Shown here: piece after piece, positions 11,791 through 40,067 of the stretch
Layout of the letters: the number at the start of each line of letters is the position of its first letter
Numbering within the stretch: position 1 is the stretch's first letter
Assembly: GCA_963807625.1 (NCBI GenBank)
Contig: CAWECN010000012.1
Location: 259,583-323,582 of the forward strand
Direction: 5' to 3'
Source: an uncultured Gammaproteobacteria bacterium
GTDB taxonomy: Bacteria; Pseudomonadota; Gammaproteobacteria; SZUA-229
Length of the DNA stretch: 64,000 bases
The notes under the pieces: model-generated
The model's input: the letters and a program-made list of their open reading frames with translations, nothing else
Database searches by the model: none
What the model was told of the DNA's origin: nothing
Made by a program: the position numbers and the translations under genes

Positions 11791-13266
11791 TCATACTTCA
11801 TAAGTTGTAGAGGCAACCTTGCCACCGTGGCCAGTCCAGTCGGTATGGAAAAATTCGCCACGCGGCTTATCGAGGCGTTCATAGGTATGTGCACCAAAGT
11901 AGTCGCGCTGCGCCTGCAGCAAGTTTGCCGGCAGGCGTTCACTGCGGTAGCCATCGAAGTAAGACAACGCCGATGAAAATGCCGGAGCTGGAATACCGCT
12001 CTCGACAGCAAGTACCACAGCTTTGCGCCAGCCCGTCTCTGCAGTTTTCAGTGCATCGCTAAAGAAGGAGTCAAGCGCCAGGTTTTCCAGTTCAGGATTC
12101 TTGTCGTAGGCATCTTTTATATTGCCGAGGAAAGTACTGCGGATAATACAGCCACCTCGCCACATCAATGCGATCTCACCATAGTTAAGATCCCAGCCCA
12201 TCTCTCTTGCTGCTTCAGACATGAGCATAAAACCCTGTGCATAAGAGATGATCTTGGATGCGTACAGAGCATCGCGAAGTGCATCTATTATTGCTTTCTT
12301 GTCTGCTACTGGAGAAATCTCAGGGCCCGGACCAAGTATTGCAGAAGCACGAACACGCTCATCTTTCAATGACGACAGGATTCGGGCAAACACCGACTCA
12401 CCGATCAAGGTCAGTGGCACGCCGAACTCTAATGCGCTGATACCGGTCCATTTACCCGTGCCTTTCTGGCCAGCAGTATCGAGTATCTTGTCTAACAGTG
12501 GTTCACCATCTTCATCTTTGACCGCGAGGATATCCTTGGTGATATCGATCAGGTATGAATCGAGTACCCCGGTGTTCCATTCTTTGAACACTTCATGCAT
12601 CTCGTCACAGCTCATGCCGAGCGCATTCTCCATCAATGAATAGGCCTCACAGATCAGCTGCATATCACCGTATTCGATGCCGTTGTGCACCATCTTCACG
12701 AAGTGGCCGGCACCGTCCTGTCCTACCCACTGGCAACATGGCTCACCGTCGACTTTCGCCGACACCGCCTGGAAGATATCTTTAACCAGCGGCCATGCTT
12801 CGGGATCGCCACCTGGCATGATGGATGGACCAAAACGGGCACCCTCTTCGCCGCCTGAAACCCCGGTACCGATAAAGCGCAGACCTTTTTCTCTCAGGTA
12901 AGCGGTACGTCGTGTCGAATCAGGATAATGAGAATTACCACCATCGATGATGACATCACCCGGTTCGAGCAAAGGTATCAGCATATCGATGAAACTGTCG
13001 ACCACCTCACCGGCTTTAACCATCAGCATGACCTTTCGCGGCGTCGCCAGTGATGCGACCAGTTCTTCCATACTGTAGGTACCGATGATACTGGTACCTT
13101 TTGCTGGCCCCTCGATAAAGTCATCGACCTTGCTGGTGGTACGATTGAAGACAGCGACACGGTAACCGTGATCCGCCATATTCAGAACCAGGTTCTGCCC
13201 CATTACTGCAAGTCCGATAAGCCCGATATCTGCCTTTTCCATAGTTTTAGTTTCTCTTAGAGTCAT
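11791..13266 (-). CDS. gnd: 6-phosphogluconate dehydrogenase, decarboxylating
   Basis: [26 protein letters not shown] is the Rossmann N-terminus. Full-length similarity pattern to Gnd, about 480 aa. The probable true start is the internal Met at 13242. Confidence 0.9.
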
Positions 13267-13664: not shown

Positions 13665-14174
13665 ATGCCAGGTACTACAAACATACCATTGCAGTTTCTC
13701 AACCTGTGGTTGACATTACTGCTCATCTGGCTGATAGCCAACGGCAACCTGGCATCTGACACGGTTATCGCCGGCGTCGTTGTCTCTGCGGTTATCGCAC
13801 TGGCATTTTCTACCTTCGCGCGGGTCTACAGCGTCATCCGCTGGTCACCGAGGGTTATCTACTATTACCTGATGTATCTCGGCGTATTCTGTATCGAACT
13901 GTTCAAAGCCAATATCAATGTCATGCGGCTGGTATTCTCGCCACATATCGATATCAAACCCGGTATCGTCGAGATCAAGACCGAGCTAAAGTCACCGATC
14001 GGCCGGCTGGCACTGGCAAACAGCATTACCTTGACACCCGGTACGCTGGTCGTTGATATAAAGGATGATTCACTGTTTATCCACTGGATCAATATCGGTG
14101 CGACTGATCCGGTTGCTGCCAGCGAAGCGATCTCGGGACGTTTCGAAAAATACCTGAAGGTGATCTACGGATGA
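13665..14174 (+). CDS. MrpE/MnhE-like subunit (MbhA-like) of an Mrp–complex I hybrid complex
   Basis: 169 aa with N-terminal TM helices and the MnhE-type motif SITLTPGTLVVD. It is the first gene of the 11–12-gene operon. Confidence 0.7.
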   Translation: MPGTTNIPLQFLNLWLTLLLIWLIANGNLASDTVIAGVVVSAVIALAFSTFARVYSVIRWSPRVIYYYLMYLGVFCIELFKANINVMRLVFSPHIDIKPGIVEIKTELKSPIGRLALANSITLTPGTLVVDIKDDSLFIHWINIGATDPVAASEAISGRFEKYLKVIYG

Positions 14175-14180
14175 TGCTCG

Positions 14181-14456
14181 ATGACTGATTTTGGCATGAC
14201 AGAAATTACCATCGTCATCTCCTCTGTACTGATCTTTTTCAGTATCGTGTTCGGCATCGTACGCCTGGTGATCGGACCGGAGACGGTTGATCGCGTGGTC
14301 GCCATCGACCTGCTGACCATCGTGACTATCGCGCTGATCGCCCTGCTCGCACACCAGGCCGAGCGATACATCTATCTCGATGTCGCACTGGTCTATGGTC
14401 TGCTCAGTTTCCTCGGTGTGCTCGCCGTTGCCCGTTTCCTGGAAAAAGGTATCTGA
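14181..14456 (+). CDS. MrpF/MnhF-like subunit
   Basis: 91-aa three-TM protein with the topology and size of MrpF. Its position follows MrpE as in mrp/mbh operons. Confidence 0.6.
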   Translation: MTDFGMTEITIVISSVLIFFSIVFGIVRLVIGPETVDRVVAIDLLTIVTIALIALLAHQAERYIYLDVALVYGLLSFLGVLAVARFLEKGI

Positions 14457-14463
14457 TCTGCGT

Positions 14464-14736
14464 ATGTCTACTCTCGTCATCACATTATTAACTGTCGTAC
14501 TATGTGCAGGTATCCTGATCGGGGGCCTGCTTGCAGTCATACTCAATAATATGGTCAGCGCGGTAATCAGCGCCGGCCTTGCCAGCCTGTTCGCTTCCGT
14601 GGTCTACGTGGTGCTGGCCGCACCCGATGTGGCGATGACCGAGGCGTCTATCGGCTCCGGCCTGACCACCATGATCTTTCTCTATGCTATCCGTAAAACA
14701 CAGAGCGCAGAGTCAGATAGCGAGGAGGACAAATGA
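14464..14736 (+). CDS. MbhD-like subunit (DUF4040, MrpA C-terminal-like)
   Basis: The internal start MSTLVITLL... of ORF 14380..14736 carries the conserved APDVAMTEASIGSGL motif of DUF4040/MbhD. Confidence 0.55.
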   Translation: MSTLVITLLTVVLCAGILIGGLLAVILNNMVSAVISAGLASLFASVVYVVLAAPDVAMTEASIGSGLTTMIFLYAIRKTQSAESDSEEDK

Positions 14737-15089
14737 CGTTTCTCGGTGATATCGTTGGCAACCTGTTCCTGATCATCGGTTCGCTGTTCCTGTTTTCAGC
14801 AGGACTCGGTGTGTTGCGCATGCCTGACACCTACAACCGTATCCAGACCGGCACCAAAGCGACCACGCTGGGTACCATCATGGTGCTGATCGGGCTGGCT
14901 TTTCTGCATCCGGCCTGGACCTTGAAACTCATCATCCTGATCTTCTTCGTCATGCTGACCAACCCGGTTTCATCACATGCACTGGCACGTGCCTCACACG
15001 CCACAGGCATACATGGAACTGAGGAAACAGTGATCGACCAGCTCACTGACGCTACCGAAAAAGATAATGTCGAGGTTAAACCGGAATGA
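14733..15089 (+). CDS. MrpG/MnhG-like subunit
   Basis: 118 aa. GLGVLRMPDTYNRIQTGTKATTLG matches the MnhG signature. The start overlaps the upstream gene's stop (ATGA), which suggests translational coupling. Confidence 0.7.
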   Translation: MTFLGDIVGNLFLIIGSLFLFSAGLGVLRMPDTYNRIQTGTKATTLGTIMVLIGLAFLHPAWTLKLIILIFFVMLTNPVSSHALARASHATGIHGTEETVIDQLTDATEKDNVEVKPE

Positions 15090-15829
15090 TCAAACGAATC
15101 TTCATCTTTTTGATGCTCGTTCTGATGGCGATGATCTTTTTCAACCTTGCCGCGAACTATACCGAGAATACTTCGCTGTCCAAACTCGGCCACTACTATG
15201 CTGACAGAGGCCCCGAGGAACTGGGTGCACCCAATCTTGTTACCGCCGTGGTGGTGACCTATCGCGGCCTGGATACACTGGGTGAAGTCACTGTGCTGTT
15301 CATCTCTGCCGCCGGTGTCGGCCTGCTGCTGCGCCGTACCCGACGCAACCAGGATGATGATGAAGGTCTCGAAAAAGGTGACCGTGCGGAAGAGACAGCG
15401 GGCATACATAAACCTGCCAGTGAGATCGTCGAAACCGCCACCGAACTGTTGCTGCCGATGGTGATCCTTTTCGGTGTCTATGTCTTCATGAATGGTCACC
15501 TCTCGCCCGGTGGCGGATTCCAGGGCGGTGCGATCATCGCCTCTGGCACCATGTTCCTGCTGCTGGCATTACCGGAGTCACACATCAGCCGATTGATGAT
15601 CGCAGTCACAGAATCGCTGTCTGGCTTCAGCTACGTCGTGGTCGGTGTGCTCGGCGTTACTCTGGCAGGCGGCTTTCTCGACAACCGTATCATGGATCTT
15701 GGCACCTATGGCCACCTGTTCAGTGCCGGCGCGATACCGCTGATCTACACCTTCGTCGGCCTCAAGGTCGGTTTTGAACTGAGCGCAGTACTCGACCGCT
15801 TCCGCAAGGAGGACACCGGCCCGGTATGA
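15086..15829 (+). CDS. MrpB/MnhB-domain subunit
   Basis: 247 aa. NLVTAVVVTYRGLDTLGEVTVL is the MnhB motif, and GHLSPGGGFQGG is present. ATGA overlap with the upstream gene. Confidence 0.65.
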   Translation: MIKRIFIFLMLVLMAMIFFNLAANYTENTSLSKLGHYYADRGPEELGAPNLVTAVVVTYRGLDTLGEVTVLFISAAGVGLLLRRTRRNQDDDEGLEKGDRAEETAGIHKPASEIVETATELLLPMVILFGVYVFMNGHLSPGGGFQGGAIIASGTMFLLLALPESHISRLMIAVTESLSGFSYVVVGVLGVTLAGGFLDNRIMDLGTYGHLFSAGAIPLIYTFVGLKVGFELSAVLDRFRKEDTGPV

Positions 15830-16206
15830 ACATGCTAACCGACATCCCGATTTCACTCATCGTTCTGTGCAGCGGCCTGGCCCTGATACTGATCGGCATG
15901 TGGGGCATGCTGACACAGCGTAACATGATCCGCATGATCATCGGCTTCTCGCTGACCGATACCGGTATCCACATGGTCATGGTATCGATAGGTTATGTCA
16001 CCGGCGGCACGGCGCCGATCATCAACGATGCGGTACCCATAGCCGATGCCGTTAACATGGTGGTTGATCCGGTACCCTCTGCACTGGTTCTCACCGCCAT
16101 CGTGATCGGTCTCGGTGTTACCGCGGTGATGCTGGCCTTTGCAGTTCGTATCTATAAAGCGCGCAACACTTTAAACATCGATGAATGTACGGAGTCGAAA
16201 TGGTAA
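15826..16206 (+). CDS. MrpC/NuoK-like subunit
   Basis: 126-aa three-TM protein of the NuoK/MrpC family (GMWGMLTQRNMIRMIIGFSL). Confidence 0.7.
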   Translation: MNMLTDIPISLIVLCSGLALILIGMWGMLTQRNMIRMIIGFSLTDTGIHMVMVSIGYVTGGTAPIINDAVPIADAVNMVVDPVPSALVLTAIVIGLGVTAVMLAFAVRIYKARNTLNIDECTESKW

Positions 16207-19200
16207 CGGCAAGTCTGTTAGATACATTGCTGCAGCCATTGAGCATCTACGTACTCGCACTCGGTGCGGGTTTCCTGATTCCGCTGTTCGACCGTGCCCA
16301 CCGCGGCTCGGCGATAATGGTTTTCATGCTCGCCCTGGCGGGCCTGGTAGTAATCGCCGGCTTTAACCTGCTGGCCATCATCAACGGTGCACCGGCCATC
16401 GATATCGAAACCGCCGGCATAAAACCGCCGTTTTCCATCAATTTACGATTTGGCCTGTTCGAAGGCGGCTTCGTGCTCGCCGTCAATACCGCCGCATTAC
16501 TGGGCGCCTGGCATTACCTGCCGAAACTGAAAGAACACGCCTCTGCGCTGCTGCTCTACCTGATCCTGGTGATGGGCATCAACGGCATGGTGATGACCCG
16601 CGACCTGTTTAACCTGTTTATCTTCATCGAGATCACATCGATCGCCACCTACGCGCTGATCGGCATGGAGCGCACCGGCAGTGTGCTGGCCGCCGGTTTT
16701 AAATACATCATCGCGACTTCGATCGCATCGGCATTTTTCCTGCTAGGCACCATCTTTATCTATTACCAGACGGGCACGCTGAACATCGATGACATCATCG
16801 CGCACAGTGCGGCGATCCAGGGCCCTATCGGCTTTATCGCCACCCTGTTCGTACTTACCGGCCTGCTCATCGAACTCAAACCCTACCCGGCTAACGGCTG
16901 GGGGCTGGATGTTTATGAAACCGCTCCCAGCGGCATCGCCTCATTGATTTCTGTGGGTGTTTCTGCCGGTGTATTTTTTGCGGTATATAAGGTGCTACCG
17001 CTGGCGGGTGACTTCTTGCAGAGCATCGCGATAATCGGCGGATTCACCTTCCTGTTTTCAAACGTTATCGGCCTGAAGCAGGAAAACGCCAAACGTCTGC
17101 TCGGGTATTCATCTATCGGCCAGATGGGACTGCTAACCATGGCACTGGCATTACTGGCACAGATGGATAGCGGTACCCAGGCACCGATTATTATCGGCGG
17201 CCTGTTTGTTAATCACCTGCTGGCCAAGGCAGGACTGTTCTGGCTCGCTGGTTTAGTCGATCGAAAAAGTATCCGTGACTGGTCAGTGATTACCAAAAAT
17301 CGTGGCATGTTACTACTGCTCGGCATCATGATAGTTGCATTGGTCGGCCTGCCGCCTTTCCCCGGGTTCTGGGCGAAATGGGAACTGGTCATGCTGCTGG
17401 CCAGCAATGAACTGTTTGGCTGGATCGCACTGGTATTGCTCGGCTCACTGCTGGAAGCCGCCTATTTGTTCCGCTGGTTCAGTTACGCACAACAGACTGA
17501 CGAATCACAAACAGAATCTACCGCTAGTTACTCACCTGCCACATACTGGCAGCAGGCACCCATCGCCATCGCTGCACTGCTACTGTTTGCAACTGGCTAT
17601 ATCATGGCGATGGTCATGCAGGTCGTTACCCCCGAATTATTCCTGCCGCTGGTGGCCGGCCTGGTGCTCTGGTTGATCGACGGTGTACCCGGACGCTTCA
17701 AAAATCTACCGATGCTGGTTGCTGTTGGTGTCTGTGGCTACCTGCTTACCAATGAACTCGAAGGCATCAACCGCCTGTTCAGTTACCTGCTGATTGGCGG
17801 CGGCCTGCTGGTAAGCATCGCTGCGATGTACCGCAATGATGCACGCAGGGGTTTCTACCCGCTGCTCGCAGTCCTGTTACTGTCGCTGGCCACCCTGTTA
17901 CGCGCACAGACCACGCTGGAATTTTTCTTTGGCTGGGAACTGATGACGCTGAGCTCCTACCTGCTGGTAACACTGGGACGAGACAGCCTGCATAACGGCA
18001 TCAAACCTGCGTTGACTTACCTGCTGTTCTCACTCGGTTCAGCCTATTTCATACTCACTGGTTTCGCCGTCGCTTATGGCGTTAGCGGCAGCCTGCTATT
18101 AAGCAGCCTTGGCAATAGCGGCGACTCGACAGGCATCATCTTCAGCCTGCTGGCACTCGGCTTCCTCATCAAGATGGGCGGTTTCGGCGTACACATCTGG
18201 TTGCCTGGCGCCTATGCTGAATCGGATGATGACTTCACCGCTATCCTCTCTGCCGTGGTCAGCAAGGCCGGCGTCTTCGGCCTGATCATCGTCGCTGCCC
18301 AGCTGGGAATACGCTCCGATATCGGGCTCGAGCCGGCTTATGTGCTCGGCTGGATCGGTATCCTCACCGCCACGTTCGGTGCCTTGATGGCCGTGTTCCA
18401 GGAAGACATCAAAAAACTGGTGGCCTATTCCAGTATGGGTCAGCTGGGTTACATCGTCACAGGTGTCGCCCTGATGAGCCACCTAGGCTGGGTATCAGCC
18501 ATGTATATGACGGTCAATCACTTCCTGTTCAAAGGCATCCTGTTCCTGTCGGTCGCCGGCATCATCCTGCGCACCAACCAGCGCATGATGTACAAGATGG
18601 GCGGCCTGATCAAGAACATGCCATTTACTTTCACCTTCACCATGATCGCGATCATCGCCATGTCCGGGGTGCCGCCGCTGACCGGTTTTGGCGGCAAGTG
18701 GATGCTGTTCAACGCACTGATGGAGAAAGGCTGGTACTGGATCGCAGCGCTGGCGTTCTTCTCCAGCGCTGTTGCATTCCTCTATATGTTCCGCCTGCTG
18801 CAGACCGTGTTTCTCGGCCAGCGCAAGCTCGAACATCACAAGTTACGCGAAGCCCCGGCTATCCTGCTGATCCCGCAGGGTGTAATGATCGCCTGCATCA
18901 TGGTGGTCTCGGCGTATCCGAAACTGCTGCTTGATCCTGTATCCGCAGCCATCGATCCGTGGATCGCCAATACCCTGGTGTGGGAAGGCACCGCGATGGT
19001 GGCACACTTCGGTTACTGGAATGCACCGATGATCATGGCCGTGGTCGCCGGTGTCTGGATGGTGCCGCTGATACTGCTGCTGCTGATCTCACTGACCTTA
19101 AAGATCCAGAAAGTCGAGCAGTTCAATATCGTATTTGCAGCTGAACGTCCTCGCCGTCCGGAAGAGACACATTTTGCCTATAACTTTTTTGCGCATTACG

Positions 19201-19385
19201 ACCGCGCCATCGGCTTCCTGGTAAGACCGCGGGCGACCGCATTCTGGAACACCGTGGCCGAGTGGAGCCACACCATGGCATCATCACTACGCATTTTCTA
19301 TAGCGGTAACGGCCAGACCTATGCACTATTCGTCATCATGTATTTTGTTGCCATGTTCCTGCTTAATGGAGGACTCGCCCTGTGA
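16185..19385 (+). CDS. Fused tandem antiporter-like subunit (two MrpD/NuoL/M/N modules in one 1066-aa polypeptide)
   Basis: Module 1, about aa 1–500, has FIEITSIATYALIG and LGYSSIGQMG. Module 2, about aa 560–1000, has FFFGWELMTLSSYLLV and VAYSSMGQLGYIVTG. Both are hallmark motifs of proton-pumping NuoL/M/N and MrpA/D subunits. Confidence 0.75.
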   Translation: MYGVEMVTASLLDTLLQPLSIYVLALGAGFLIPLFDRAHRGSAIMVFMLALAGLVVIAGFNLLAIINGAPAIDIETAGIKPPFSINLRFGLFEGGFVLAVNTAALLGAWHYLPKLKEHASALLLYLILVMGINGMVMTRDLFNLFIFIEITSIATYALIGMERTGSVLAAGFKYIIATSIASAFFLLGTIFIYYQTGTLNIDDIIAHSAAIQGPIGFIATLFVLTGLLIELKPYPANGWGLDVYETAPSGIASLISVGVSAGVFFAVYKVLPLAGDFLQSIAIIGGFTFLFSNVIGLKQENAKRLLGYSSIGQMGLLTMALALLAQMDSGTQAPIIIGGLFVNHLLAKAGLFWLAGLVDRKSIRDWSVITKNRGMLLLLGIMIVALVGLPPFPGFWAKWELVMLLASNELFGWIALVLLGSLLEAAYLFRWFSYAQQTDESQTESTASYSPATYWQQAPIAIAALLLFATGYIMAMVMQVVTPELFLPLVAGLVLWLIDGVPGRFKNLPMLVAVGVCGYLLTNELEGINRLFSYLLIGGGLLVSIAAMYRNDARRGFYPLLAVLLLSLATLLRAQTTLEFFFGWELMTLSSYLLVTLGRDSLHNGIKPALTYLLFSLGSAYFILTGFAVAYGVSGSLLLSSLGNSGDSTGIIFSLLALGFLIKMGGFGVHIWLPGAYAESDDDFTAILSAVVSKAGVFGLIIVAAQLGIRSDIGLEPAYVLGWIGILTATFGALMAVFQEDIKKLVAYSSMGQLGYIVTGVALMSHLGWVSAMYMTVNHFLFKGILFLSVAGIILRTNQRMMYKMGGLIKNMPFTFTFTMIAIIAMSGVPPLTGFGGKWMLFNALMEKGWYWIAALAFFSSAVAFLYMFRLLQTVFLGQRKLEHHKLREAPAILLIPQGVMIACIMVVSAYPKLLLDPVSAAIDPWIANTLVWEGTAMVAHFGYWNAPMIMAVVAGVWMVPLILLLLISLTLKIQKVEQFNIVFAAERPRRPEETHFAYNFFAHYDRAIGFLVRPRATAFWNTVAEWSHTMASSLRIFYSGNGQTYALFVIMYFVAMFLLNGGLAL

Positions 19386-20320
19386 TCTTCGATAGTATGA
19401 GCGAATGGCTGTCCAAAGCCGGTTATTTTTCACTTACTTTATTGATAGTAACGTTCTACGGATTGTTCGTCGGCGCATGTATCGAACGTATCATCGCCAA
19501 GGTACAGGGCCGTATCGGTATCCCCTACTCACAGCCGTTCATAAATATCCTGAAGAACTTCTTTAAACGTACCGCCATCAGCCACGGCATCATGTTCTAC
19601 CTCGGCCCGGTATTCCGTATCGCCGGCGGTATCGGTACCCTGGCTTTCATACCGGTTATCTACGGCAGTGAAATGTTCTCTAATTTCAGCGCGGCCGGTG
19701 ACCTGTTCCTGGTAATCTATTTCATGTTTTTCGGCCAGCTGGGTATGGCGCTGGGCGCCGGTGAAAGCGGACATCCTTACGCTGCCATCGGCATCGCCCG
19801 CGGCCTGTCGCAGATGACCGCCTATGAAGTACCGTTTGCACTGGCGGTTATCTCCATCGTCATCCAGTACGACACCCTGTCTATCAACGAGATCGTCGCT
19901 GCCCAGCAAGGCGGCTGGCAGAACTGGACGATGGTCACCAACTGGGTGGCGACGCTGGCTGCGATGCTGGCATTCCTCGGCATGACCGGTTACTCGCCGT
20001 TTGATATCTTCCTGGCACCACAGGAGATCCCGATCGGCCCACCCACCGAATTTCACAGCTCCTATCTTTCCCTGCTGCAGATCAACCGTGCGCTGTTCGG
20101 TGCCACCAAGCTGGTACTGTTCATGAACCTGTTTTTCGGCGGTGCCACCGGCTGGGTCGAACTGATGATCAAGACCTTCCTGATCTATATGGTCGCCATC
20201 GTCGTCGGCGTCGCCTTCCCGCGCTTCAGGGTCGACCAGGCGATTCGTTTCTTCTTTAAAATCCCGACCCTTATTGGGATAATGTCAATCGTATACGTGC
20301 AGATGGTACTGACTGCCTAA
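19382..20320 (+). CDS. NuoH-like (MbhM/HyfC/CooK-like) membrane subunit
   Basis: 312-aa polytopic protein of the complex I subunit 1 family (GLFVGACIERIIAKVQGRIGIPYSQPF). ATGA coupling with the upstream gene. Confidence 0.75.
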   Translation: MIFDSMSEWLSKAGYFSLTLLIVTFYGLFVGACIERIIAKVQGRIGIPYSQPFINILKNFFKRTAISHGIMFYLGPVFRIAGGIGTLAFIPVIYGSEMFSNFSAAGDLFLVIYFMFFGQLGMALGAGESGHPYAAIGIARGLSQMTAYEVPFALAVISIVIQYDTLSINEIVAAQQGGWQNWTMVTNWVATLAAMLAFLGMTGYSPFDIFLAPQEIPIGPPTEFHSSYLSLLQINRALFGATKLVLFMNLFFGGATGWVELMIKTFLIYMVAIVVGVAFPRFRVDQAIRFFFKIPTLIGIMSIVYVQMVLTA

Positions 20321-20332
20321 TAGGACATAACT

Positions 20333-20965
20333 ATGATTAAAAGTCTGAACACAGAAGATACCCTGGAAAATGCCGGGCTAACCGAAGAAGAGCAGCTGCT
20401 GTTCAGTAATGCCCGGCCTAAAGCTTACGAACCTTATCCGATCAAGGCGGTCGAAGACTTTGCTAACTGGGCGCGTGCGAATTCATTATGGATACTGGCA
20501 TTCGGTACAGGCTGTGGCGCCATCGAACTGCGCCCGCTGATGACGGCACGATTCGATGCCAACCGTTTCGGTGTCGCCGGCCGTCCGACACCGAGACAGT
20601 CATCGGTATTCATCATCGGCGGCTATGCCTCGGTAAAAACACTGAAACGTATCGTTCGCAGCTATGAGCAGATGCAGGGGCCCAAGTTCGTGATCTGTCT
20701 CGGCATCTGCCCGGTCAACGGCGGCATGTATTTCGACAGTTACAACACGATCAACCAGTTCGACCAGTACATACCGGTCGACCTGTATATCACCGGCTGT
20801 ATGCCGCGCCCTGAAGTACTGGTCGCCGGCATCATGGAACTGCAGAAAAAGATCAAGGCCGGTGAATGTGACGGCGCCAACCGTTATGTAGAAAACTTCG
20901 ACTGGTATAAAGCCAACCAGAAAAAAGTCATCAAGAACTGGGATATGCCGGATTATAACTGGTAA
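20333..20965 (+). CDS. NuoB-like (hydrogenase small-subunit-like) Fe-S subunit with an incomplete cluster-N2 Cys set
   Basis: 210 aa. GTGCGAIEL shows a single Cys where NuoB has a CC pair. GICPVNGG and GCMPRPE match the NuoB motifs GxCxxxGG and CPP. Confidence 0.8.
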   Translation: MIKSLNTEDTLENAGLTEEEQLLFSNARPKAYEPYPIKAVEDFANWARANSLWILAFGTGCGAIELRPLMTARFDANRFGVAGRPTPRQSSVFIIGGYASVKTLKRIVRSYEQMQGPKFVICLGICPVNGGMYFDSYNTINQFDQYIPVDLYITGCMPRPEVLVAGIMELQKKIKAGECDGANRYVENFDWYKANQKKVIKNWDMPDYNW

Positions 20966-21011
20966 CAGAATTTGGCTGGTAGCCAATATTAGCTAATAGA
21001 TAAGTGAAACT

Positions 21012-21554
21012 ATGAATGAATTGATGGAAAGACTGCAGCGTGACTTTGGTGTCAATGACATCATCGTGCGTAAACCTGCGCTGACGACACTCAAGGTCAG
21101 TAAAGACAGTACTGAAACACTGATCCGTGAACTGCGCGATCGTGAAGGTTACACGCATCTCAATTTCATGACCTGCATCGACTATATCGAGGACGGCATT
21201 TTCACCCTGGTCTACATGCTGCACAACTTCGAAAAAACACACTCAATAGGCGTACACGTCGATATCAGCCGTGACAATGAAGACATGGTCTCCATCCATA
21301 CACTGTGGGCACAGGCATGGACCTACCAGCGGGAGCTGCGTGAGATGTACGGCATCAATTTCCCCGGCAGCCCGCGTCTCGAGGAAGACTTCTGCCTGGA
21401 AGGCTGGGACGATATACCACCGATGCGCCGCGAGTTCGATACCAAAAAATTCAGCCAGGAACGTTTCGGCCACCGTGAAGGCCGGCACAGCGAAGTGCCG
21501 CGTGAGCACATGAAAGTAGAAATCTACCCGAACCGCGGGGGTGACGAGAAATGA
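21012..21554 (+). CDS. NuoC-like (30-kDa subunit) protein
   Basis: 180 aa. ERELREMYGINFPGSP is the NuoC signature. Confidence 0.75.
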   Translation: MNELMERLQRDFGVNDIIVRKPALTTLKVSKDSTETLIRELRDREGYTHLNFMTCIDYIEDGIFTLVYMLHNFEKTHSIGVHVDISRDNEDMVSIHTLWAQAWTYQRELREMYGINFPGSPRLEEDFCLEGWDDIPPMRREFDTKKFSQERFGHREGRHSEVPREHMKVEIYPNRGGDEK

Positions 21555-22750
21555 AACTGCCATTTGGACGTGCCTCTAGCGGCCCCATATCAACAGGCCA
21601 CTCCGCCTCACTGGATTTTGCCCAGCCGGAACCTGTCGACCTGGCTTCAGGCAAATACGTCAAACTGTGGCAGGGCCCGCAGCACCCGGGGATTACCGGT
21701 AACATGTCACTGGAGCTGACGCTCGACGGTGACACCATCATCGATTGCAAGACCCACGTCGGCTACCTGCACCGCGGTTTCGAAAAGCTGATGGAACGCC
21801 GCAGCTTCATCCAGAACTTTACTGTGGTGTGCCGTATCGCAGTACCCGAACCGACATTCAACGAATACCTTTATTCTCATGCGGTCGAGGAACTCAGCGG
21901 CATCGAGATACCAGAGCGTGCCACCTGGCTACGCACCATGAACCTCGAAATGATGCGCCTCGCCAGTTTCCTGATGTGGATTGGCGGCCAGGGCGGCGCC
22001 TTCGGCCAGTACACCGTAGCTAACTGGACACTGGCCTATCGTGACTATGTACTCGACCTGTTCGAAGAGATGACCGGCGCCCGTATTTACCACATGTATA
22101 TCGTGCCCGGCGGCGTACGTGCCGGCCTGCCCGATGGTTTCGAGAAACGCGCACGCGAGATCATGGACGGTGCTGAAAAGCTACTCGATCAGATCGAACG
22201 CGTGATGTTTAACAATACTGTTTTCAAAGCACGCTCGAAAGGCCTCGCCATTATCCCGCCTGAAATGATCGACCCCTACGGTGTCGTCGGCCCTAATGCA
22301 CGCGCCTGCGGTGTTAAACGCGACCTGCGTAAAGACGAGCCTTACCTGGCCTACGATCAGCTCGATTTCGAAGTCATCACTGGCACAGATTCAGATGCTT
22401 ACGAACGTGCTTATCTGCGTCTGCAGGAAACCCGTCAATGCATCAGCCTGATCCGCCAGTGCCTGGATCGTATGCCGATGGATGGACCTTTCCAGGCAGA
22501 TATGCCCAACGTATTACACTGGAAAGTGCCTGCCGGTGAAACCTATGTGAAAGCGGAGTGTACCCGCGGAGAATACGGTTACTACATGGTGACCGATGGA
22601 TCAGAATTCGTGCGCCGTGTCCATGTACGCGGTCCGAGCTACACGCATGCCATCGCCGTGATGGAGCGCCTCGCCGTCGGCAACAATATCGCTGATATCG
22701 CCGGCATGATGGTTTCGCTGCACACATATCCACCCGAGATAGAGCGATGA
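21551..22750 (+). CDS. NuoD-like / [NiFe]-hydrogenase large-subunit-like protein lacking Ni-Fe cysteine ligands
   Basis: 399 aa. WQGPQHPG and HVGYLHRGFEKLME are NuoD-type motifs. There is no N-terminal RxCGxC and no C-terminal DPCxxC. The C-terminus ...VHVRGPSYTHAIAVMERLAVGNNIADIAGMMVSLHTYPPEIER has no cysteine. Confidence 0.8.
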   Translation: MKLPFGRASSGPISTGHSASLDFAQPEPVDLASGKYVKLWQGPQHPGITGNMSLELTLDGDTIIDCKTHVGYLHRGFEKLMERRSFIQNFTVVCRIAVPEPTFNEYLYSHAVEELSGIEIPERATWLRTMNLEMMRLASFLMWIGGQGGAFGQYTVANWTLAYRDYVLDLFEEMTGARIYHMYIVPGGVRAGLPDGFEKRAREIMDGAEKLLDQIERVMFNNTVFKARSKGLAIIPPEMIDPYGVVGPNARACGVKRDLRKDEPYLAYDQLDFEVITGTDSDAYERAYLRLQETRQCISLIRQCLDRMPMDGPFQADMPNVLHWKVPAGETYVKAECTRGEYGYYMVTDGSEFVRRVHVRGPSYTHAIAVMERLAVGNNIADIAGMMVSLHTYPPEIER

Positions 22751-22766
22751 TGGGAGAGATAATGTC

Positions 22767-24575
22767 ATGAGCTTAAAAGACCTGCTCTCACCTTTTTTCG
22801 TCTGGCAGCGTGCCTTCGAAAAACCTTATACCTCGATTCGACCAACAATCGATCGTCCAGGCGCACCGGCTTACCGCGGCTTTCATATCAACATCACCGA
22901 AACCTGCGTCGGCTGCGGCAGCTGCCACGAGATCTGCCAGAACCAGGCCATCGATATGGTCGCGGTCGAGGAATTCCAGGGCCGTGACGGCGACAGCGGA
23001 CTGCGCCCGCGTTTTGATTACGGCCGCTGCTGCTGGTGCGGTCTCTGTGTCGATATCTGTACCGCCGCCTCGCTTCGCATGAGCAACGAATACGCCTGGA
23101 TCAGTGAAGATCCGAACTCATTTCACTTCACTGCCGGTGTCGATGACAAGCCATGGCAGGACAACGAACACGGTTACCGCCGCGCTGAAGGTTATCACCT
23201 GTATCCGCCCAAACGCATCGAGATGGATATGCTGTCGCCGGAAGAAAGTGTTAAGTCGTTCGATGAAGTCGCCAAAGGTTATGACGAACAGCAGGCGAAA
23301 AAAGAAGCCGACCGCTGTGTTGAGTGCGGCATCTGTGTTGCTACCTGTCCGGCGCACATGGATGTCCCTGATTATATTCACAGCATCCGCGACGGTGACT
23401 ACGAAAAAGGCCTGCAGCTGATGTACCGTACCAACCCGTTCCCGGCGACCTGCGGCCGCATCTGTACACGAAACTGCGAATCAGTATGTCCCGTAGGTAT
23501 CCTCGGTGAACCGGTCGCAATCCGCTGGCTGAAACGTTTCATCGTCGACCAGGTCGATAAAAAAGATTACAAACGTATATTGAATGAGCAGATAACTGAA
23601 AGCGGACGCAAGGTTGCCATCATCGGTGCCGGACCGGGCGGGCTCAGTGCAGCTTATTACCTGCGCCAGCAGGGGCATGCCGTTACCGTATTCGAAGCAC
23701 AGGAATCAGGTGGTGGTATGCTGCGCTACGGTGTACCGAGTTATCGACTGCCGGACGATGATCTGGATAAGGATATCGATTACATCGTCTCACTCGGCGT
23801 CGATATCAGGTACAACACCCGAGTTGGTAAAGACGTCACATTTGAAAAACTGCTGGAAGATTATGATGCATTGTTTATGTCTACCGGACTTTCTGTGCCT
23901 TCCAATATGCGCATCCAGGGTGAAGACCATCCGCGCGTCTTATCCGGCCTGCAGGTACTGGCCGATGTGGCCAACGGACGCGACCCGGGTATCGGCAAGA
24001 AAGTCGCTGTCATCGGTGGTGGTAATGTGGCAATGGACGCGGCACGTGTCTCCCGACGCTTCGGTGCGGATGTCACCATACTCTACCGCCGCCGTATCAG
24101 CGAGATGCCGGCAGATGAAGAAGAGATTCACGAATCTCAGGAAGAAGGCTGCACCATCGTACAGCAGGCGATCCCGGTCGAAGTCATCAATGCCGAGAGC
24201 GCCGAGCAGGTTTCAATCAGATGGGGTGAAGCCGAAATGGTCGATGACCCCAAAGGCGGTCGTCCCCGTCCTGTACTGCAGGAAGACCGCATGCATACCG
24301 AGACCTATGACTGCATCATCTCAGCCATCGGTCAGGGCAGCAACCTGGACTACATCCCGAAAGAGGTTCAGGAGCAAATGGAAGTTGAATGGGGCAAATT
24401 CACACCCGGTGAATATCAGCATACGATACTTGAAAAAGTCTTTGTCGGCGGTGATTTTGCCAACCGTACGGCCGATGCCATCAGCGCTATCGAAGACGGT
24501 CATCACGCTGCCCGCGGTATTAACCGTTTCCTCAACCCGGATGCTTACATCGATACAGAACAACAGGTAAATTAA
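22767..24575 (+). CDS. Fusion protein: N-terminal 2x[4Fe-4S] ferredoxin (NuoI/MbhN-like) joined to a GltD/SudA-like NAD(P)H-dependent FAD oxidoreductase
   Basis: CVGCGSCHEICQN and CCWCGLCVDICTAAS are two ferredoxin motifs. CVECGICVATCP...PFPATCGRICTRNCESVCPVG is a GltD-type N-terminal Fe-S region. KVAIIGAGPGGLSAAYY and KVAVIGGGNVAMDAAR are two dinucleotide-binding folds. Confidence 0.8.
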   Translation: MSLKDLLSPFFVWQRAFEKPYTSIRPTIDRPGAPAYRGFHINITETCVGCGSCHEICQNQAIDMVAVEEFQGRDGDSGLRPRFDYGRCCWCGLCVDICTAASLRMSNEYAWISEDPNSFHFTAGVDDKPWQDNEHGYRRAEGYHLYPPKRIEMDMLSPEESVKSFDEVAKGYDEQQAKKEADRCVECGICVATCPAHMDVPDYIHSIRDGDYEKGLQLMYRTNPFPATCGRICTRNCESVCPVGILGEPVAIRWLKRFIVDQVDKKDYKRILNEQITESGRKVAIIGAGPGGLSAAYYLRQQGHAVTVFEAQESGGGMLRYGVPSYRLPDDDLDKDIDYIVSLGVDIRYNTRVGKDVTFEKLLEDYDALFMSTGLSVPSNMRIQGEDHPRVLSGLQVLADVANGRDPGIGKKVAVIGGGNVAMDAARVSRRFGADVTILYRRRISEMPADEEEIHESQEEGCTIVQQAIPVEVINAESAEQVSIRWGEAEMVDDPKGGRPRPVLQEDRMHTETYDCIISAIGQGSNLDYIPKEVQEQMEVEWGKFTPGEYQHTILEKVFVGGDFANRTADAISAIEDGHHAARGINRFLNPDAYIDTEQQVN

Positions 24576-24590
24576 AGCAGGTAAATTAAT

Positions 24591-25037
24591 ATGAATACAG
24601 TTGATGAGATACTGGATTACGCCATTGATCAGGAACAGCAGGCAGCTGATTTTTATGCAGATGTCGCACAACGCGCCGAGTCAGCCGGCATGAAAAAACT
24701 GCTGCTGGACTTTTCCGAAGAAGAAAAACGCCATAAAGAGATCCTGCTGGCAGTGAAAACCGGCGAGCATGAACTGACACCGGAACAGGAAGTACTGGAT
24801 CTGAAGATTTCTGATTACCTGGTCGAAGTCGAAGCCAGTGAAAACATCTCCTATCAGGACGCGTTGATCATCGCGATGAAACGTGAACGCGCCGCCTATG
24901 AACTCTACACCGACATGGCGGCAAAAGTACCCGAAAGCCACCTCAAGGAAGTGCTCGAGGGCCTCGCCAAAGAAGAGGCGAAGCATAAACTGTTCTTCGA
25001 AGCAGAATATGATGAACGGGTGCTGATGGACAACTAA
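24591..25037 (+). CDS. Rubrerythrin/ferritin-like diiron protein (no rubredoxin domain)
   Basis: 148 aa with two E..H di-iron half-sites (EEEKRHKE, EEAKHKL) in a four-helix-bundle pattern. It starts 16 nt after the preceding gene, so it is probably co-transcribed. Confidence 0.6.
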   Translation: MNTVDEILDYAIDQEQQAADFYADVAQRAESAGMKKLLLDFSEEEKRHKEILLAVKTGEHELTPEQEVLDLKISDYLVEVEASENISYQDALIIAMKRERAAYELYTDMAAKVPESHLKEVLEGLAKEEAKHKLFFEAEYDERVLMDN

Positions 25038-25164: not shown

Positions 25165-26823
<1,659 letters not shown>

Positions 26824-34570: not shown

Positions 34571-36769
34571 ATGAAAGATCAGACCTTACAGATGCGGTAC
34601 AATCGGCGGGCCCTGAAAGACCGCCTGGCACGATACTTTGTAGCTTTAGGTGGAATCAGCGTTATCATCGCTATCCTGTTGATTTTCTTCTATTTGCTTT
34701 ATGTTGTTATACCGATGTTCGGTTCAGCTGAAATTCATGAAAGCGTAACATACACTGCCCCAGCAGAAGGCAAAACTCTGCATCTCGGATTGGAAGAGCA
34801 AGGCACCATCGGTGTAAGATTCACAGACAAAGGCCATGCAATCTTTTTCGATACCGCTTCCGGCGATATTATTCAGGATGAAAATTTTGATCTGCCGGCA
34901 CCCATCAGCAGTGTCGCTGCCAATCTGGACCTCGTGGTACTTGGCCTAACTAACGGTTCAGTAATAGCGGTGCGTTACAAGTTCGACCTAAGTTATCCAG
35001 ACGATATCCGCACCCTGACGCCAAGGCTAGAATATCCATTGGGTAAAGATCCACTGACACTCGATGAGTCTGGTGAATCACTATCACATATAGCCATTCA
35101 ACTCAGTGATGACATCGTCGGCCTGGCGGCCACGACTAGTGATAACCGCCTGGTGTTTACCCGTTACCTGCGTGAACAGTCTTTCATCAGCGAAGACATC
35201 ACTATCGAACTTGAATCAAGGTCTGAACAGGCATTCGAGTATGATATCTCTTCGATCGCACTGACACCCGGGCTGGATCATCTATATGCTGCGATTGCGG
35301 GCGGTAAGCTGGAAGACTTTTCACTGGATGATGAAGGCTTCGATGGCAACAGGACAGAATATCACTTCGACCATGATATCACCCGGCTCAAACTTCTGCT
35401 CGGCGGCTCGTCTTTAATGGTCGGCATGAAGAACGGCGAAGTACAGCAATGGATGTCAGTTCGAAAAGATGGCGGCAGAGAATTAACCTTCATACGTAAC
35501 TTCCATGAGAATACAGAAGCTGTTACCACTATCGCCACCGAGCAGCAAAGAAAAGGTTTTGCCGTCGCTGATACACAAGGTGACATCACGATTTATTATT
35601 CAACATCACAAAGAACACTGGCAAACATTAACACGGCAGATGCGCAGATAGAGCAGATGGCATGGTCGGCACGTGCCCAAAACCTGATAGCGGCAGACAG
35701 TAGTAACCAGATACGACTGTACCAGGTACATAACGAGTATCCAGAAGTATCCTGGGACGTGTTATGGGGCAAGATCTGGTACGAAGGCTATGACGAAGCA
35801 GATTATATCTGGCAGTCGTCTGCTTCGACCAACGAGTTCGAACCCAAGTTCAGCTTGATGCCGCTATCATTCGGCACCATCAAGGCTGCATTTTATGCCA
35901 TGTTGTTCGCCGTGCCGATCGCCATATTAGGTGCGATATTTACCGCACAGTTCATGGCGCCACGCATGCGCCAGACGGTAAAACCATCGATCGAGATCAT
36001 GGAAGCACTGCCTACTGTTATCCTCGGTTTCCTGGCTGGTTTATGGCTCGCGCCTTATGTAGAAACGCATCTTGCAGGAATATTTACCCTGCTATTGATA
36101 ATGCCCGTTGGCTTTATAGTATGCGCATGGCTCTGGGGCTACATGCCAAACAAATCTGCCTACGAAGGCTGGGAAGCAGCATTGCTTATACCCGTGGTTC
36201 TGCTTTTGATCTGGGTTTCTATGTCCTTAAGTTCACCGATCGAGACACTCTTTTTCGATGGTGACATGCGAACCTACATGAGCAACGAATGGGGCCTGAA
36301 CTATGACCAGCGAAATGCACTGGTCGTCGGTCTGATCATGGGTTTTGCTGTTATCCCGACAATATTCTCGATTGCAGAAGATGCTTTATTCAGTGTGCCA
36401 CAGCACCTGGTGCGTGGTTCACTGGCACTGGGCGCAACACGCTGGCAGACGATGACAAGCGTGGTACTGCCGGCCGCTAGTCCAGGCATATTCTCAGCTG
36501 TGATGATGGGTTTTGGTCGTGCCGTTGGTGAGACTATGATCGTCTTGATGGCAACGGGTAATACGCCATTGATGGACATGAGCATATTCCAGGGTATGCG
36601 CACACTGGCAGCAAACCTGGCGGTAGAGGTTCCTGAAGCAGAAGTCTTCAGTACACACTATCGTGTCCTGTTCCTCGCTGCATTAATACTGTTTCTGTTC
36701 ACCTTCGTATTTAATACACTCGCAGAAATAATTCGTCAACGTTTACGCCAGAGGTACAGCGGCCTATGA
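34571..36769 (+). CDS. pstC: Phosphate ABC transporter permease PstC (long form with an N-terminal periplasmic extension)
   Basis: The C-terminal half has ABC-permease TM helices and the EAA-like loop (ALGATRWQTMTSVVLPAASPGI). The long N-terminal domain resembles pseudomonad-type PstC. The true start may be at 34592. Confidence 0.85.
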   Translation: MKDQTLQMRYNRRALKDRLARYFVALGGISVIIAILLIFFYLLYVVIPMFGSAEIHESVTYTAPAEGKTLHLGLEEQGTIGVRFTDKGHAIFFDTASGDIIQDENFDLPAPISSVAANLDLVVLGLTNGSVIAVRYKFDLSYPDDIRTLTPRLEYPLGKDPLTLDESGESLSHIAIQLSDDIVGLAATTSDNRLVFTRYLREQSFISEDITIELESRSEQAFEYDISSIALTPGLDHLYAAIAGGKLEDFSLDDEGFDGNRTEYHFDHDITRLKLLLGGSSLMVGMKNGEVQQWMSVRKDGGRELTFIRNFHENTEAVTTIATEQQRKGFAVADTQGDITIYYSTSQRTLANINTADAQIEQMAWSARAQNLIAADSSNQIRLYQVHNEYPEVSWDVLWGKIWYEGYDEADYIWQSSASTNEFEPKFSLMPLSFGTIKAAFYAMLFAVPIAILGAIFTAQFMAPRMRQTVKPSIEIMEALPTVILGFLAGLWLAPYVETHLAGIFTLLLIMPVGFIVCAWLWGYMPNKSAYEGWEAALLIPVVLLLIWVSMSLSSPIETLFFDGDMRTYMSNEWGLNYDQRNALVVGLIMGFAVIPTIFSIAEDALFSVPQHLVRGSLALGATRWQTMTSVVLPAASPGIFSAVMMGFGRAVGETMIVLMATGNTPLMDMSIFQGMRTLAANLAVEVPEAEVFSTHYRVLFLAALILFLFTFVFNTLAEIIRQRLRQRYSGL

Positions 36770-38445: not shown

Positions 38446-38473
38446 TACAGATAACTAACACATAGATGCGATC

Positions 38474-39295
38474 ATGACTGACACTATCACGACAACAATC
38501 GATGAATCACTGCTTAAAGGCTCAACCGCTACTGACGCAGACGAAATATGCATGCAGGTAAATAATCTAAGCCTGTTTTATGGTGAAGCACAGGCATTAA
38601 CTGATATCAGCTTTGAGATGAAGAAAAACCGTGTCACAGCATTTATCGGCCCCAGTGGCTGTGGCAAGTCCACCCTGTTACGCTGCTTTAACCGCATGAA
38701 CGACCTGGTCGACAGTGTTCGCGTGGAAGGTGCGATAATGCTTGATGGCGACAACATCTACGCGCCCGATGTTGATGTCACATCACTGCGCCAGCGAGTC
38801 GGCATGGTGTTCCAGAAACCCAACCCCTTCCCGATGAGTATTTTTGAAAACGTGGCTTATGGTCTACGTTTACAGGGCATAAACAAACGCCGCCACCTTG
38901 AAGAAAAAATTGAATGGGCACTTAAAGGTGCTGCTTTATGGGAAGAAGTGAAAGACCGGCTCGATGAAAGCGCACTGGGATTATCCGGTGGTCAACAGCA
39001 ACGTCTTGTTATCGCCCGTGCGATTGCTATCGAACCTGAAATTCTGTTGCTGGACGAACCCGCATCTGCACTTGACCCTATTTCCACATTGAAGATCGAA
39101 GAACTGATATACGAGTTAAAATCGCAGTACACTATCCTTATCGTTACTCATAACATGCAACAGGCAGCCCGCGTATCTGACGAGACCGCCTTCATGTACA
39201 TGGGTGAGATGATCGAGTTTGGTGAAACCAACAAGATATTCACCAATCCTGCAAGAAAACAGACTGAAGATTATATTACTGGCCGTTACGGCTAA
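38474..39295 (+). CDS. pstB: Phosphate import ATP-binding protein PstB
   Basis: Walker [13 protein letters not shown] signature LSGGQQQRL, Walker B ILLLDEP. Confidence 0.9.
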
Positions 39296-39338
39296 CTATA
39301 CAAGCAGTAATATTAGATTAAAGCAACGAGGCACATTT

Positions 39339-40055: not shown

Positions 40056-40067
40056 TAGACGCTGATT

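Follow-up and report, generated by a model that had tools for sequence, protein, structure and literature searches.

A single reading frame for a ferredoxin domain and a flavoprotein

The analyzed window, a stretch of 64,000 bp from an uncultured gammaproteobacterium (lineage SZUA-229; assembly GCA_963807625.1, contig CAWECN010000012.1, positions 259,583 to 323,582 of the forward strand), contains a co-directional operon of 12 genes (13665-24575), which combines genes of the Mrp antiporter type with genes resembling those of complex I (Nuo). The last complex subunit encoded in this operon, on which this study focuses, consists of a NuoI-type ferredoxin domain followed by an NAD(P)H flavoprotein of the glutamate synthase small subunit (GltD) type. 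According to the open reading frame (ORF) listing and its translation, the gene (22767..24575, + strand) is one ORF of 602 amino acids (aa) with an ATG start and no internal stop codons. It begins 16 nt past the stop of the NuoD-like gene at 22750, and a Shine-Dalgarno-like motif (GGGAGAG) lies immediately upstream. The same single ORF without a stop was found in 75 fetched loci, and this conservation of one uninterrupted frame rules out separate ORFs, a frameshift, or an assembly artefact.

In Pfam searches, aa 44-100 of the fusion protein matched a Fer4 dicluster, aa 162-266 matched Fer4_20 (E 2.6e-30), and aa 282-578 matched Pyr_redox_2 (E 8.6e-29), with a linker separating the N-terminal domain (aa ~6-120) from the C-terminal module of the NfnB/SudA/GltD type (aa 162-590). 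The N-terminal domain contains two CxxCxxCxxxCP motifs and an N-terminal segment of the NuoI type, and the NCBIfam model of NuoI (TIGR01971) matched aa 12-120 (E 3.9e-21). With a score of 74.9, which does not reach the family cut-off of 113, this part of the protein is by sequence NuoI-like but does not qualify as an orthologue of NuoI. Among solved structures, its best match was MbsN of the membrane-bound sulfane reductase (MBS) of Pyrococcus furiosus (6u8y_N, E 9e-17), followed by NuoI (8e9g_I, E 2.9e-9) and by MbhN of the membrane-bound hydrogenase (MBH; 6cfw_N, E 9e-7). The C-terminal part matched NfnB-type chains best (E 1e-81 to 1e-87, compared to ~1e-51 for GltD), and the alignment with these chains extends through aa 590. 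An AlphaFold2 model of the fusion protein that was calculated from an alignment of 90 homologues reached a mean local confidence (pLDDT) of 88 and a predicted template modelling (TM) score (pTM) of 0.85; in an earlier prediction from 12 sequences the NuoI-like domain had remained at pLDDT <50. The C-terminal module of the model superimposes on NfnI-L with bound NADP(H) (5jca_L) with a TM score of 0.89 and a root mean square deviation of 2.3 Å. An N-terminal helix is located within the NuoI/MbsN-type domain, and the isolated model shows disorder at aa 18-34.

Sixteen Fe-S cysteines are invariant across alignments of 12, 69, and 90 homologues with identities down to 38%. Eight of them form two CxxCxxCxxxC sets in the NuoI-type domain (C47/50/53/57 and C88/91/94/98) and the other eight reside in the NfnB-type module (C184/187/190/194 and C229/233/237/241). 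Both dinucleotide glycine motifs (GxGxxG) are invariant in the same three alignments; they read GAGPGG (aa 287-292) in the FAD fold and GGGNVA (aa 417-422) in the NAD(P)H fold, where they are followed by LYRRR (aa 439-443). The family matches, the fold, and the invariant ligands thus bear out the initial annotation of this stretch, which had proposed from the sequence alone that a NuoI/MbhN-type ferredoxin is covalently joined to a flavoprotein with an Fe-S region and two Rossmann folds, and the ferredoxin part indeed lies in the same ORF. With respect to the nucleotide, the YRR of the fusion protein aligns with the YRR of the NfnB-type chain, and two conserved arginines of NfnB bind the 2'-phosphate (PMC6405883). 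Because LYRRR is retained at the position of this Arg pair, the nucleotide site in the clade of the window protein is probably specific for NADPH. Where the beta-2 strand of the NAD(P)H Rossmann fold ends (24081-24095), LYRRR of this clade is replaced by SLE or CLE in a clade of the Thermosipho type. This suggests that the Thermosipho-type clade with SLE uses NADH and that the family is split in its specificity for NADPH and NADH.

The C-terminal module has the same fold as NfnB, NfnI-L, SudA, and GltD (5JCA_L, 4YLF_B, 6S6S), to which it is 34-37% identical, and shares with this family two [4Fe-4S] sites, FAD, and a site for NADPH that includes the conserved Arg pair. The Fe-S motifs differ, reading CxxCxxCxxxCP and CGRICx3Cx3C in the window protein but RCx2Cx4Cx3CPV and GRVCPQExQCx3C, with a Glu ligand, in NfnB (PMC6405883). 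The partner proteins NfnA/SudB or GltB are absent from the window operon, and a scan of the ORFs between 11791 and 30974 revealed no gene for them; the module is fused to the NuoI-type domain instead, so that its electrons would be expected to enter the membrane complex and not to be bifurcated. Owing to motifs unlike those of bifurcating NfnB and to the lack of an NfnA partner nearby, a linear wire as in GltD or dihydropyrimidine dehydrogenase (DPD) is expected from the sequence. AegA and YgfT of Escherichia coli (PRK12769/PRK12809; E 4e-82 and 6.5e-61) also consist of N-terminal 4Fe-4S domains and a GltD-like flavoprotein. However, the window protein scores far below the cut-offs of these two models, the N-terminal domains of AegA and YgfT are not of the NuoI/MbsN type, and their genes, unlike that of the window fusion, are not part of Mrp/Nuo-like operons.

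The initial annotation was not aware of a description of this fusion for complexes of the Ehr/Mbx type, and in this respect it has to be revised. In mbx-like operons of Thermotoga and proteobacteria, NuoI had already been reported to be replaced by a gltD-related flavoprotein, which was regarded as the NAD(P) site of an operon that “often terminates with rubrerythrin” (Degli Esposti, 2015; PMC4758237). Furthermore, NCBIfam holds an equivalog model of 611 positions for the whole fusion (NF010590/PRK13984, “putative oxidoreductase”), and relatives occur in at least 574 species. A literature search for biochemical work on the fused subunit, or for papers on Ehr complexes that name it, retrieved only the study of Degli Esposti (2015). 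The window protein aligns from aa 2-590 with positions 7-607 of PRK13984 (E 1.2e-204) at 680.9 bits and thus below the cut-off of 946, whereas the Thermosipho homologue P0125 exceeds it with 1194.7 bits; by this measure the window protein has the PRK13984 architecture but belongs to a divergent clade. The architecture and the operon type are therefore known, and the window provides one more example and no new principle.

An MBS-type catalytic core

Of all solved structures, the MBS of P. furiosus (formerly Mbx; 6U8Y) provided the best matches to the NuoD-, NuoB-, and NuoI-like parts of the window complex, which correspond to MbsL, MbsJ, and MbsN. The NuoD-like protein aligned over its full length with MbsL (6u8y_L, E 2.3e-95, 42% identity), compared to E-values of ~1e-66 for NuoD of complex I and 2e-43 for MbhL (6cfw_L). 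The NuoB-like protein aligned without gaps with MbsJ (6u8y_J, E 5e-63, 56% identity), compared to an E-value of 5e-24 for 6cfw_J of MBH. In the MBS structure, the proximal cluster of MbsJ is held by only three Cys ligands (C28, C93, C123) in a shortened loop, and the iron without a Cys ligand has been argued to be the site of polysulfide reduction (PMC7684303). These ligands correspond to C61, C126, and C156 of the window NuoB-like protein, in which the loop is of equal length and the tandem-Cys motif of cluster N2 is replaced by a single Cys. The proximal-cluster loop GTGCG with its single Cys was conserved in 67 out of 67 NuoB-like homologues.

The NuoD-like subunit has neither a [NiFe] site nor a recognizable quinone site, as is also the case in MBS. 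The CxxC motifs of [NiFe] hydrogenases (L1, RxCGxCxxxH; L2, DPCxxCxxH/R) were absent from all 76 NuoD-like homologues, and in the window protein, which reads VVCRIAVPEP and HTYPPEIER in these regions, none of the four ligand positions is occupied by Cys. The quinone ligands H38 and Y87 of Nqo4 are replaced by Thr and Val, and the family alignment contains no His or Tyr at these positions except for one sequence with His at the first. Based on the conserved single-Cys loop and the lack of [NiFe] motifs, the core is MBS-like; sequence comparison excludes a hydrogenase as core type and, in view of the replaced quinone ligands, speaks against a quinone reductase. Three further cysteines of MBS differ in the window proteins: MbsJ C25, MbsL C85, and MbsL C385 are replaced by Gly, Ala, and Tyr, respectively. 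Throughout the family, Cys or Ala is found at the position of MbsL C85 and Tyr or Cys at that of MbsL C385.

The gene content agrees with this affiliation. An Mrp-derived module (MnhE, MrpF, MnhG, MnhB/MbhE, and an MbhD-like protein) is encoded together with NuoK/H/B/C/D/I-like genes, as in MBS/Mbx complexes, and there are two antiporter-like modules as in MBS, compared to one in MBH. What is missing is a stand-alone ferredoxin-type subunit. MbsN of MBS is a plain protein of 208 aa that is fed by soluble ferredoxin, whereas its counterpart in the window carries in addition an NfnB-like flavoprotein of ~450 aa. A Pfam and NCBIfam scan of the operon ORFs revealed no second NuoI-like gene. The fusion protein replaces the last subunit of this Mrp-linked complex of the Mbx/Ehr type, as initially proposed, and its NuoI/MbsN-type domain must occupy the slot of MbsN.

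Operon organization, distribution, and genomic context

The features of the operon and of the fusion protein are listed in Table 1. The MbhD-like ORF as listed overlaps the MrpF gene by 77 nt; its true start probably lies near 14460, as in the related locus L001 (gene of 100 aa). In gammaproteobacterial loci the MnhG-like gene comes after the MbhD-like gene, whereas the two are arranged in the opposite order in other phyla (L016-L081). In the large antiporter-like ORF, Proton_antipo_M matched in two stretches (E 2.2e-89), and NCBIfam models matched aa 24-436 and aa 510-1059. Fused antiporter ORFs of ~1045-1190 aa were found in most related loci, and two genes are present in L082 (Thermosipho), L083, and L072, a metagenome-assembled genome (MAG) of the Deferribacteres. 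A Pfam scan of the operon revealed no hyp maturation genes, and candidate promoter and terminator sites were no more numerous than in shuffled sequence.

Table 1. Features of the Mrp- and Nuo-like operon, the fusion protein, and the adjacent diiron protein gene.
Feature	Coordinates	Strand	Basis
MnhE-like Mrp subunit (MbsA equivalent), first gene	13665..14174	+	Pfam MNHE E 2.1e-39
MrpF/PhaF-like subunit	14181..14456	+	Pfam MrpF_PhaF E 1.9e-18
MbhD-like subunit	14380..14736	+	Pfam MbhD E 7.5e-18
MnhG/PhaG-like subunit	14733..15089	+	Pfam PhaG_MnhG_YufB E 1.5e-25
MnhB/MbhE-like subunit	15086..15829	+	Pfam MnhB E 6.4e-22, MbhE E 4.8e-10
NuoK-like subunit (MbsG equivalent)	15826..16206	+	Pfam Oxidored_q2 E 5.3e-24
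Double antiporter-like (NuoN/M, MrpD-type) ORF, 1066 aa (MbsH + MbsH')	16185..19385	+	Pfam Proton_antipo_M
NuoH-like membrane anchor (MbsM equivalent)	19382..20320	+	Pfam NADHdh E 3.9e-48
NuoB-like subunit (MbsJ equivalent), proximal [4Fe-4S]	20333..20965	+	6u8y_J E 5e-63
NuoC-like subunit (MbsK equivalent)	21012..21554	+	Pfam Complex1_30kDa E 4.8e-24
NuoD-like subunit (MbsL equivalent)	21551..22750	+	6u8y_L E 2.3e-95
Fusion subunit, MbsN/NuoI-type domain + NfnB/SudA/GltD-type flavoprotein	22767..24575	+	602 aa
NuoI/MbsN-type 2x[4Fe-4S] domain, aa 6-120	22782..23126	+	TIGR01971, 6u8y_N, eight invariant Cys
Fer4_20 region (DPD domain II / NfnB N-terminal), two [4Fe-4S] sites	23250..23564	+	Pfam, invariant Cys
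FAD Rossmann fold + NAD(P)H Rossmann fold	23610..24536	+	Pfam Pyr_redox_2, NfnB-type alignment, 5jca_L fold
Ferritin-like diiron protein, rubrerythrin family, 148 aa	24591..25037	+	Pfam Rubrerythrin E 1.6e-13

The distribution of the fusion was determined by scanning one genome per species, and 80 loci were kept for the analysis of gene context. The species found with relatives of the fusion protein, at least 574, span the Gammaproteobacteria, Spirochaetes, Cloacimonadota, Bacteroidales, Chlorobiota, Marinimicrobia, and Deferribacteres, and the Thermotogae also carry the complex. Carriers that can be cultivated include Marispirochaeta associata JC231 (L029) and Saccharicrinis sp. FJH62 (L059). 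Among the matches listed, the closest genomes were gammaproteobacterial MAGs, including a Thiotrichales chromosome with 87% identity, and the closest relatives outside the Gammaproteobacteria were found in Spirochaetes and Cloacimonadota (55-60% identity). A search of 5.8 billion proteins yielded more than 120 full-length clusters with 76-92% identity, for which “FAD-dependent oxidoreductase” and “glutamate synthase small chain” are the only names given. An exhaustive search of representatives at the 50% identity level retrieved about eleven clusters of full-length proteins with identities as low as 38%, including ABR31076 of Thermosipho melanesiensis.

Of the 80 loci, 78 have the fusion gene immediately behind the NuoD-like gene and two are without upstream DNA, and the whole Mrp-Nuo set is collinear in every locus with 10 kb of upstream sequence. 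The initial annotation had asked whether the fusion always co-occurs with Mrp/Nuo-like genes or is common and already annotated in unrelated contexts. It is indeed common and generically annotated, but its context was the same in all 78 loci with upstream sequence. Two variants of the layout were observed. In L085 (618-2497), a split form directly after the NuoD-like gene consists of a NuoI-like gene (176 aa) that overlaps with an NfnB-like gene (450 aa) by ATGA. L083 (10001-12295), in contrast, encodes a triple fusion of NuoI, NfnB, and ferritin domains (P0128, 764 aa), whose C-terminal domain is homologous to the product of the gene downstream of the window operon. Both variants speak for a joint function of the parts as a single module. 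L084 (59-1808) resembles the split form of L085, but could represent a frameshift.

The Thermotoga-type mbx-like operon of T. melanesiensis (L082) shares with the window the general gene order and a gene set equivalent to 13 proteins, which comprises 13 genes in Thermosipho and is followed in both organisms by a ferritin/rubrerythrin-like gene. Its terminal subunit has the same layout of NuoI-type and gltD/NfnB-type parts, aligns over the full length with 44% identity, and shares all 16 cysteines. The two systems differ in the antiporter subunits, which are separate in Thermosipho but fused in the window, in the swapped order of the MbhD-like and MnhG-like genes, in the SLE or LYRRR of the second Rossmann fold, in passing or missing the PRK13984 cut-off, and in their hosts, a thermophilic fermenter in one case and presumably a mesophilic sulfur-oxidizing gammaproteobacterium in the other.

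The gene following the operon starts 15 nt past the stop of the fusion gene and encodes a diiron protein with two ExxH motifs, which lacks a rubredoxin domain and has no Cys in its 148 aa. Comparison with solved structures gave a weak match to proteins of the 2fzf/TM1526 type, and the nearest structures are those of uncharacterized ferritin-like proteins. Downstream of the fusion, a homologous gene was detected in 25 of the 80 genome loci. These include 14 of the 17 loci related to Gammaproteobacteria (set L002-L015 and L028); L001 and Thermosipho L082 (11853-12356) also have the gene. Exceptions are L014, where the gene is displaced upstream, and L028, which has no detected copy and a contig that stops within the fusion gene. 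The diiron gene was undetected downstream in more than half of the loci, although divergent copies may have been missed at the tblastn threshold used. MBS has no associated diiron protein. In the window complex, the diiron protein probably docks at the flavoprotein end, where it could act as a scavenger of peroxide or oxygen or as an auxiliary redox partner.

The window also encodes sulfate adenylyltransferase (Sat; 44094-45284) and the alpha subunit of adenosine 5'-phosphosulfate reductase (AprA; 48248-50233). These genes point to a dissimilatory sulfur metabolism, and together with the gammaproteobacterial closest matches they make a sulfur-oxidizing gammaproteobacterium the most likely host. 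The operon including the diiron protein gene (13665-25037) has a G + C content of 0.54, compared to 0.467 and 0.45 in its flanks, and a G + C content above that of the flank was also seen in L001, L006, L009, and L012. An ORF for an IS110-family transposase (10240-10977, -) is situated ~2.7 kb upstream of the operon. The operon could have been acquired horizontally. It is flanked by genes of the NADPH-producing 6-phosphogluconate dehydrogenase (11791-13266, -) and of phosphoglucomutase (25189-26823, +). These flanks recur only in the close relatives L001, L004, and L012, and the 6-phosphogluconate dehydrogenase match of L006 lies ~8 kb downstream; a functional link of these genes to the supply of NADPH is thus at best weakly indicated. 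Elsewhere in the window, a phosphate-uptake cluster (34571-42063) comprises PhoR and two permeases of unusual length, which are PstC-like (732 aa) and PstA-like (559 aa), and an ORF of 729 aa (5408-7597) is weakly similar to glutamine synthetase (E about 1e-15, far below cut-offs). The ORFs at 3548-4978 and 55680-56630 had no family matches.

Possible function of the complex

A coupling of the complex to pyridine nucleotides, as suggested by the initial annotation, is reasonable, and this part of its overall interpretation stands together with the fusion itself, whereas the supposed novelty does not. The independence from ferredoxin that it also predicted is hypothetical. The fusion protein very likely serves as the NAD(P)H-linked subunit in an Mbx/MBS-type complex of the kind noted before. 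It would form the distal subunit of the peripheral arm in an Mrp-linked relative of complex I, to which its NfnB/SudA/GltD-type module would add two [4Fe-4S] clusters, FAD, and a site for NAD(P)H. In the mechanism favored here, NAD(P)H, with NADPH being the preferred candidate, would transfer a hydride to FAD, from where single electrons would pass the two NfnB-type and the two NuoI-type clusters to reach the three-Cys proximal cluster of the NuoB-like subunit. By homology with MBS of P. furiosus, this open-iron cluster may reduce sulfane sulfur (polysulfide) in a chamber to which the NuoD-, NuoB-, and NuoH-like subunits contribute, and the sulfur chemistry would drive the translocation of H+ or Na+ by way of the double antiporter fusion and the Mrp module. 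For this explanation as a whole, an NAD(P)H-linked and ion-translocating sulfane reductase, we estimate a probability of roughly 0.6. Taken by itself, the assignment of sulfane sulfur as partner substrate, which is based on analogy to MBS, is tentative. The potentials of the NADP+/NADPH (about -320 mV) and polysulfide/sulfide (about -260 mV) couples are close to each other, and the reaction would therefore be near equilibrium and could plausibly be reversed in a sulfur-oxidizing gammaproteobacterium.

Expression data from a member of the Thermotogae are consistent with a role in sulfur metabolism, as the mbx operon of Thermotoga maritima was upregulated 4.4-fold on S0 (PMC9431562). This link to the fused subunit is made via the sister genus Thermosipho, which carries the same fusion, and via the replacement of NuoI reported for Thermotoga (PMC4758237). 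Several observations weigh against the proposed sulfane reductase. The step from NAD(P)H to polysulfide would release only ~10 kJ per two electrons at standard potentials, which is little for ion pumping, albeit similar to the 12 kJ conserved by MBH (PMC8165549). The T. maritima study draws ferredoxin as the donor of Mbx (PMC9431562). NfnB-type modules can also exchange electrons with ferredoxin, which may thus be a donor of the window complex as well. The family is also present in fermenters of the Cloacimonadota, Spirochaetes, and Bacteroidales. The Ala and Tyr in place of MbsL C85 and C385 do not fit a strict equivalence to MBS either, although MBS mutants at these two positions and at MbsJ C25 were still active (PMC7684303).

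None of the other explanations considered accounts for the open-iron cluster and the strict fusion as well as an NAD(P)H-linked sulfane reductase does, and hydrogenase is the only one of them that is excluded by sequence. The complex could alternatively be an ion-translocating ferredoxin:NAD(P)+ oxidoreductase analogous to Rnf, with the GltD-like module as the site of NAD(P)+ reduction. Degli Esposti (2015) interpreted the operon in this way, in keeping with the older model of Mbx (PMC4758237), and a preprint on Mesotoga also models Mbx as ferredoxin:NAD(P) oxidoreductase. Such an activity would suit the many hosts that are fermenters and need to re-oxidize ferredoxin, and the NfnB-type [4Fe-4S] part is the ferredoxin-reducing branch of Nfn, where ferredoxin is predicted to dock at the distal NfnB cluster (PMC6405883). 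However, this model predates the re-assignment of the P. furiosus Mbx as MBS (PMC7684303). Coupling in the superfamily is driven at the chamber of the proximal cluster, which electron transfer at the tip of the arm would bypass, and the open iron conserved throughout the NuoB-like homologues suggests that a substrate reacts there, so that we regard this function as unlikely. A defence module, in which the flavoprotein feeds the adjacent diiron protein to reduce H2O2 or O2 at the expense of NAD(P)H, would explain the close spacing of the two genes, their recurrence in most loci related to Gammaproteobacteria as well as in L001 and L082, and the C-terminal diiron domain of the subunit P0128 in L083; fusions of GltD-type proteins with ferritin are even represented by an NCBIfam model (PRK12775). 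It leaves unexplained, though, why the flavoprotein is invariably connected, via a NuoI-type domain, to an ion-translocating machinery of 12 genes, and the diiron gene was not detected downstream in most loci, within the limits of the tblastn threshold. A primary function in defence is hence improbable, and an accessory protective role of the diiron protein is more likely.

The two remaining alternatives concern the catalytic core and are opposed by its sequence. A variant NAD(P)H:quinone oxidoreductase, whose NfnB-like module replaces the NuoEFG N-module, would be in line with the overall complex I-like gene set, with the score of the NuoD-like protein against one NCBIfam model of NuoD (NF004739; 410.9 bits at a cut-off of 360), and with a gammaproteobacterial host that presumably has quinones. 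Against these points stand the replaced quinone ligands and the single Cys in place of the tandem-Cys N2 motif, an advantage of 30 or more orders of magnitude in E-value for the MBS subunits over complex I as structural relatives, and an Mrp module that is typical of MBH and MBS and not of complex I; the chances of a quinone-reducing enzyme are accordingly rated as slim. An Mrp-linked group 4 [NiFe] hydrogenase that evolves H2 with NAD(P)H or takes up H2 might be suggested by the homology of the core subunits to MBH and by the report of an Mrp-linked “group 4g” enzyme in the Cloacimonadota MAG of L053 (PMC8542988). As the L1 and L2 motifs are missing from all 76 NuoD-like homologues and hyp genes were not seen in the operon, this explanation was rejected at the sequence level and retains hardly any probability. 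The “group 4g [NiFe] hydrogenase” called in this MAG, which belongs to “Candidatus Tenebribacter mawsonii” (PMC8542988), may concern the non-hydrogenase complex described here.

If the NAD(P)H-linked sulfane reductase works in both directions, it could represent a reversible, ferredoxin-independent NADP(H):sulfane-sulfur oxidoreductase of sulfur-oxidizing Gammaproteobacteria, an idea that is speculative and at present rather doubtful. Such an enzyme would allow stored sulfur to be respired with NADPH under anoxia, whereas energized cells would use the ion gradient to transfer electrons from sulfide or polysulfide to NADP+ for CO2 fixation, so that reverse electron flow would proceed without quinone and complex I. 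More generally, complexes of this family are treated inconsistently in metabolic reconstructions, appearing as ferredoxin-dependent sulfur reductase, as ferredoxin:NADP oxidoreductase, or possibly as hydrogenase. Two corrections to these models may be considered, namely that the electron input subunit always comes with an NfnB-like flavoprotein and that the core keeps the open-iron cluster of the MBS type. Taken together, both points lead to the testable hypothesis that the complex functions as an NAD(P)H-linked, ion-translocating sulfane reductase.

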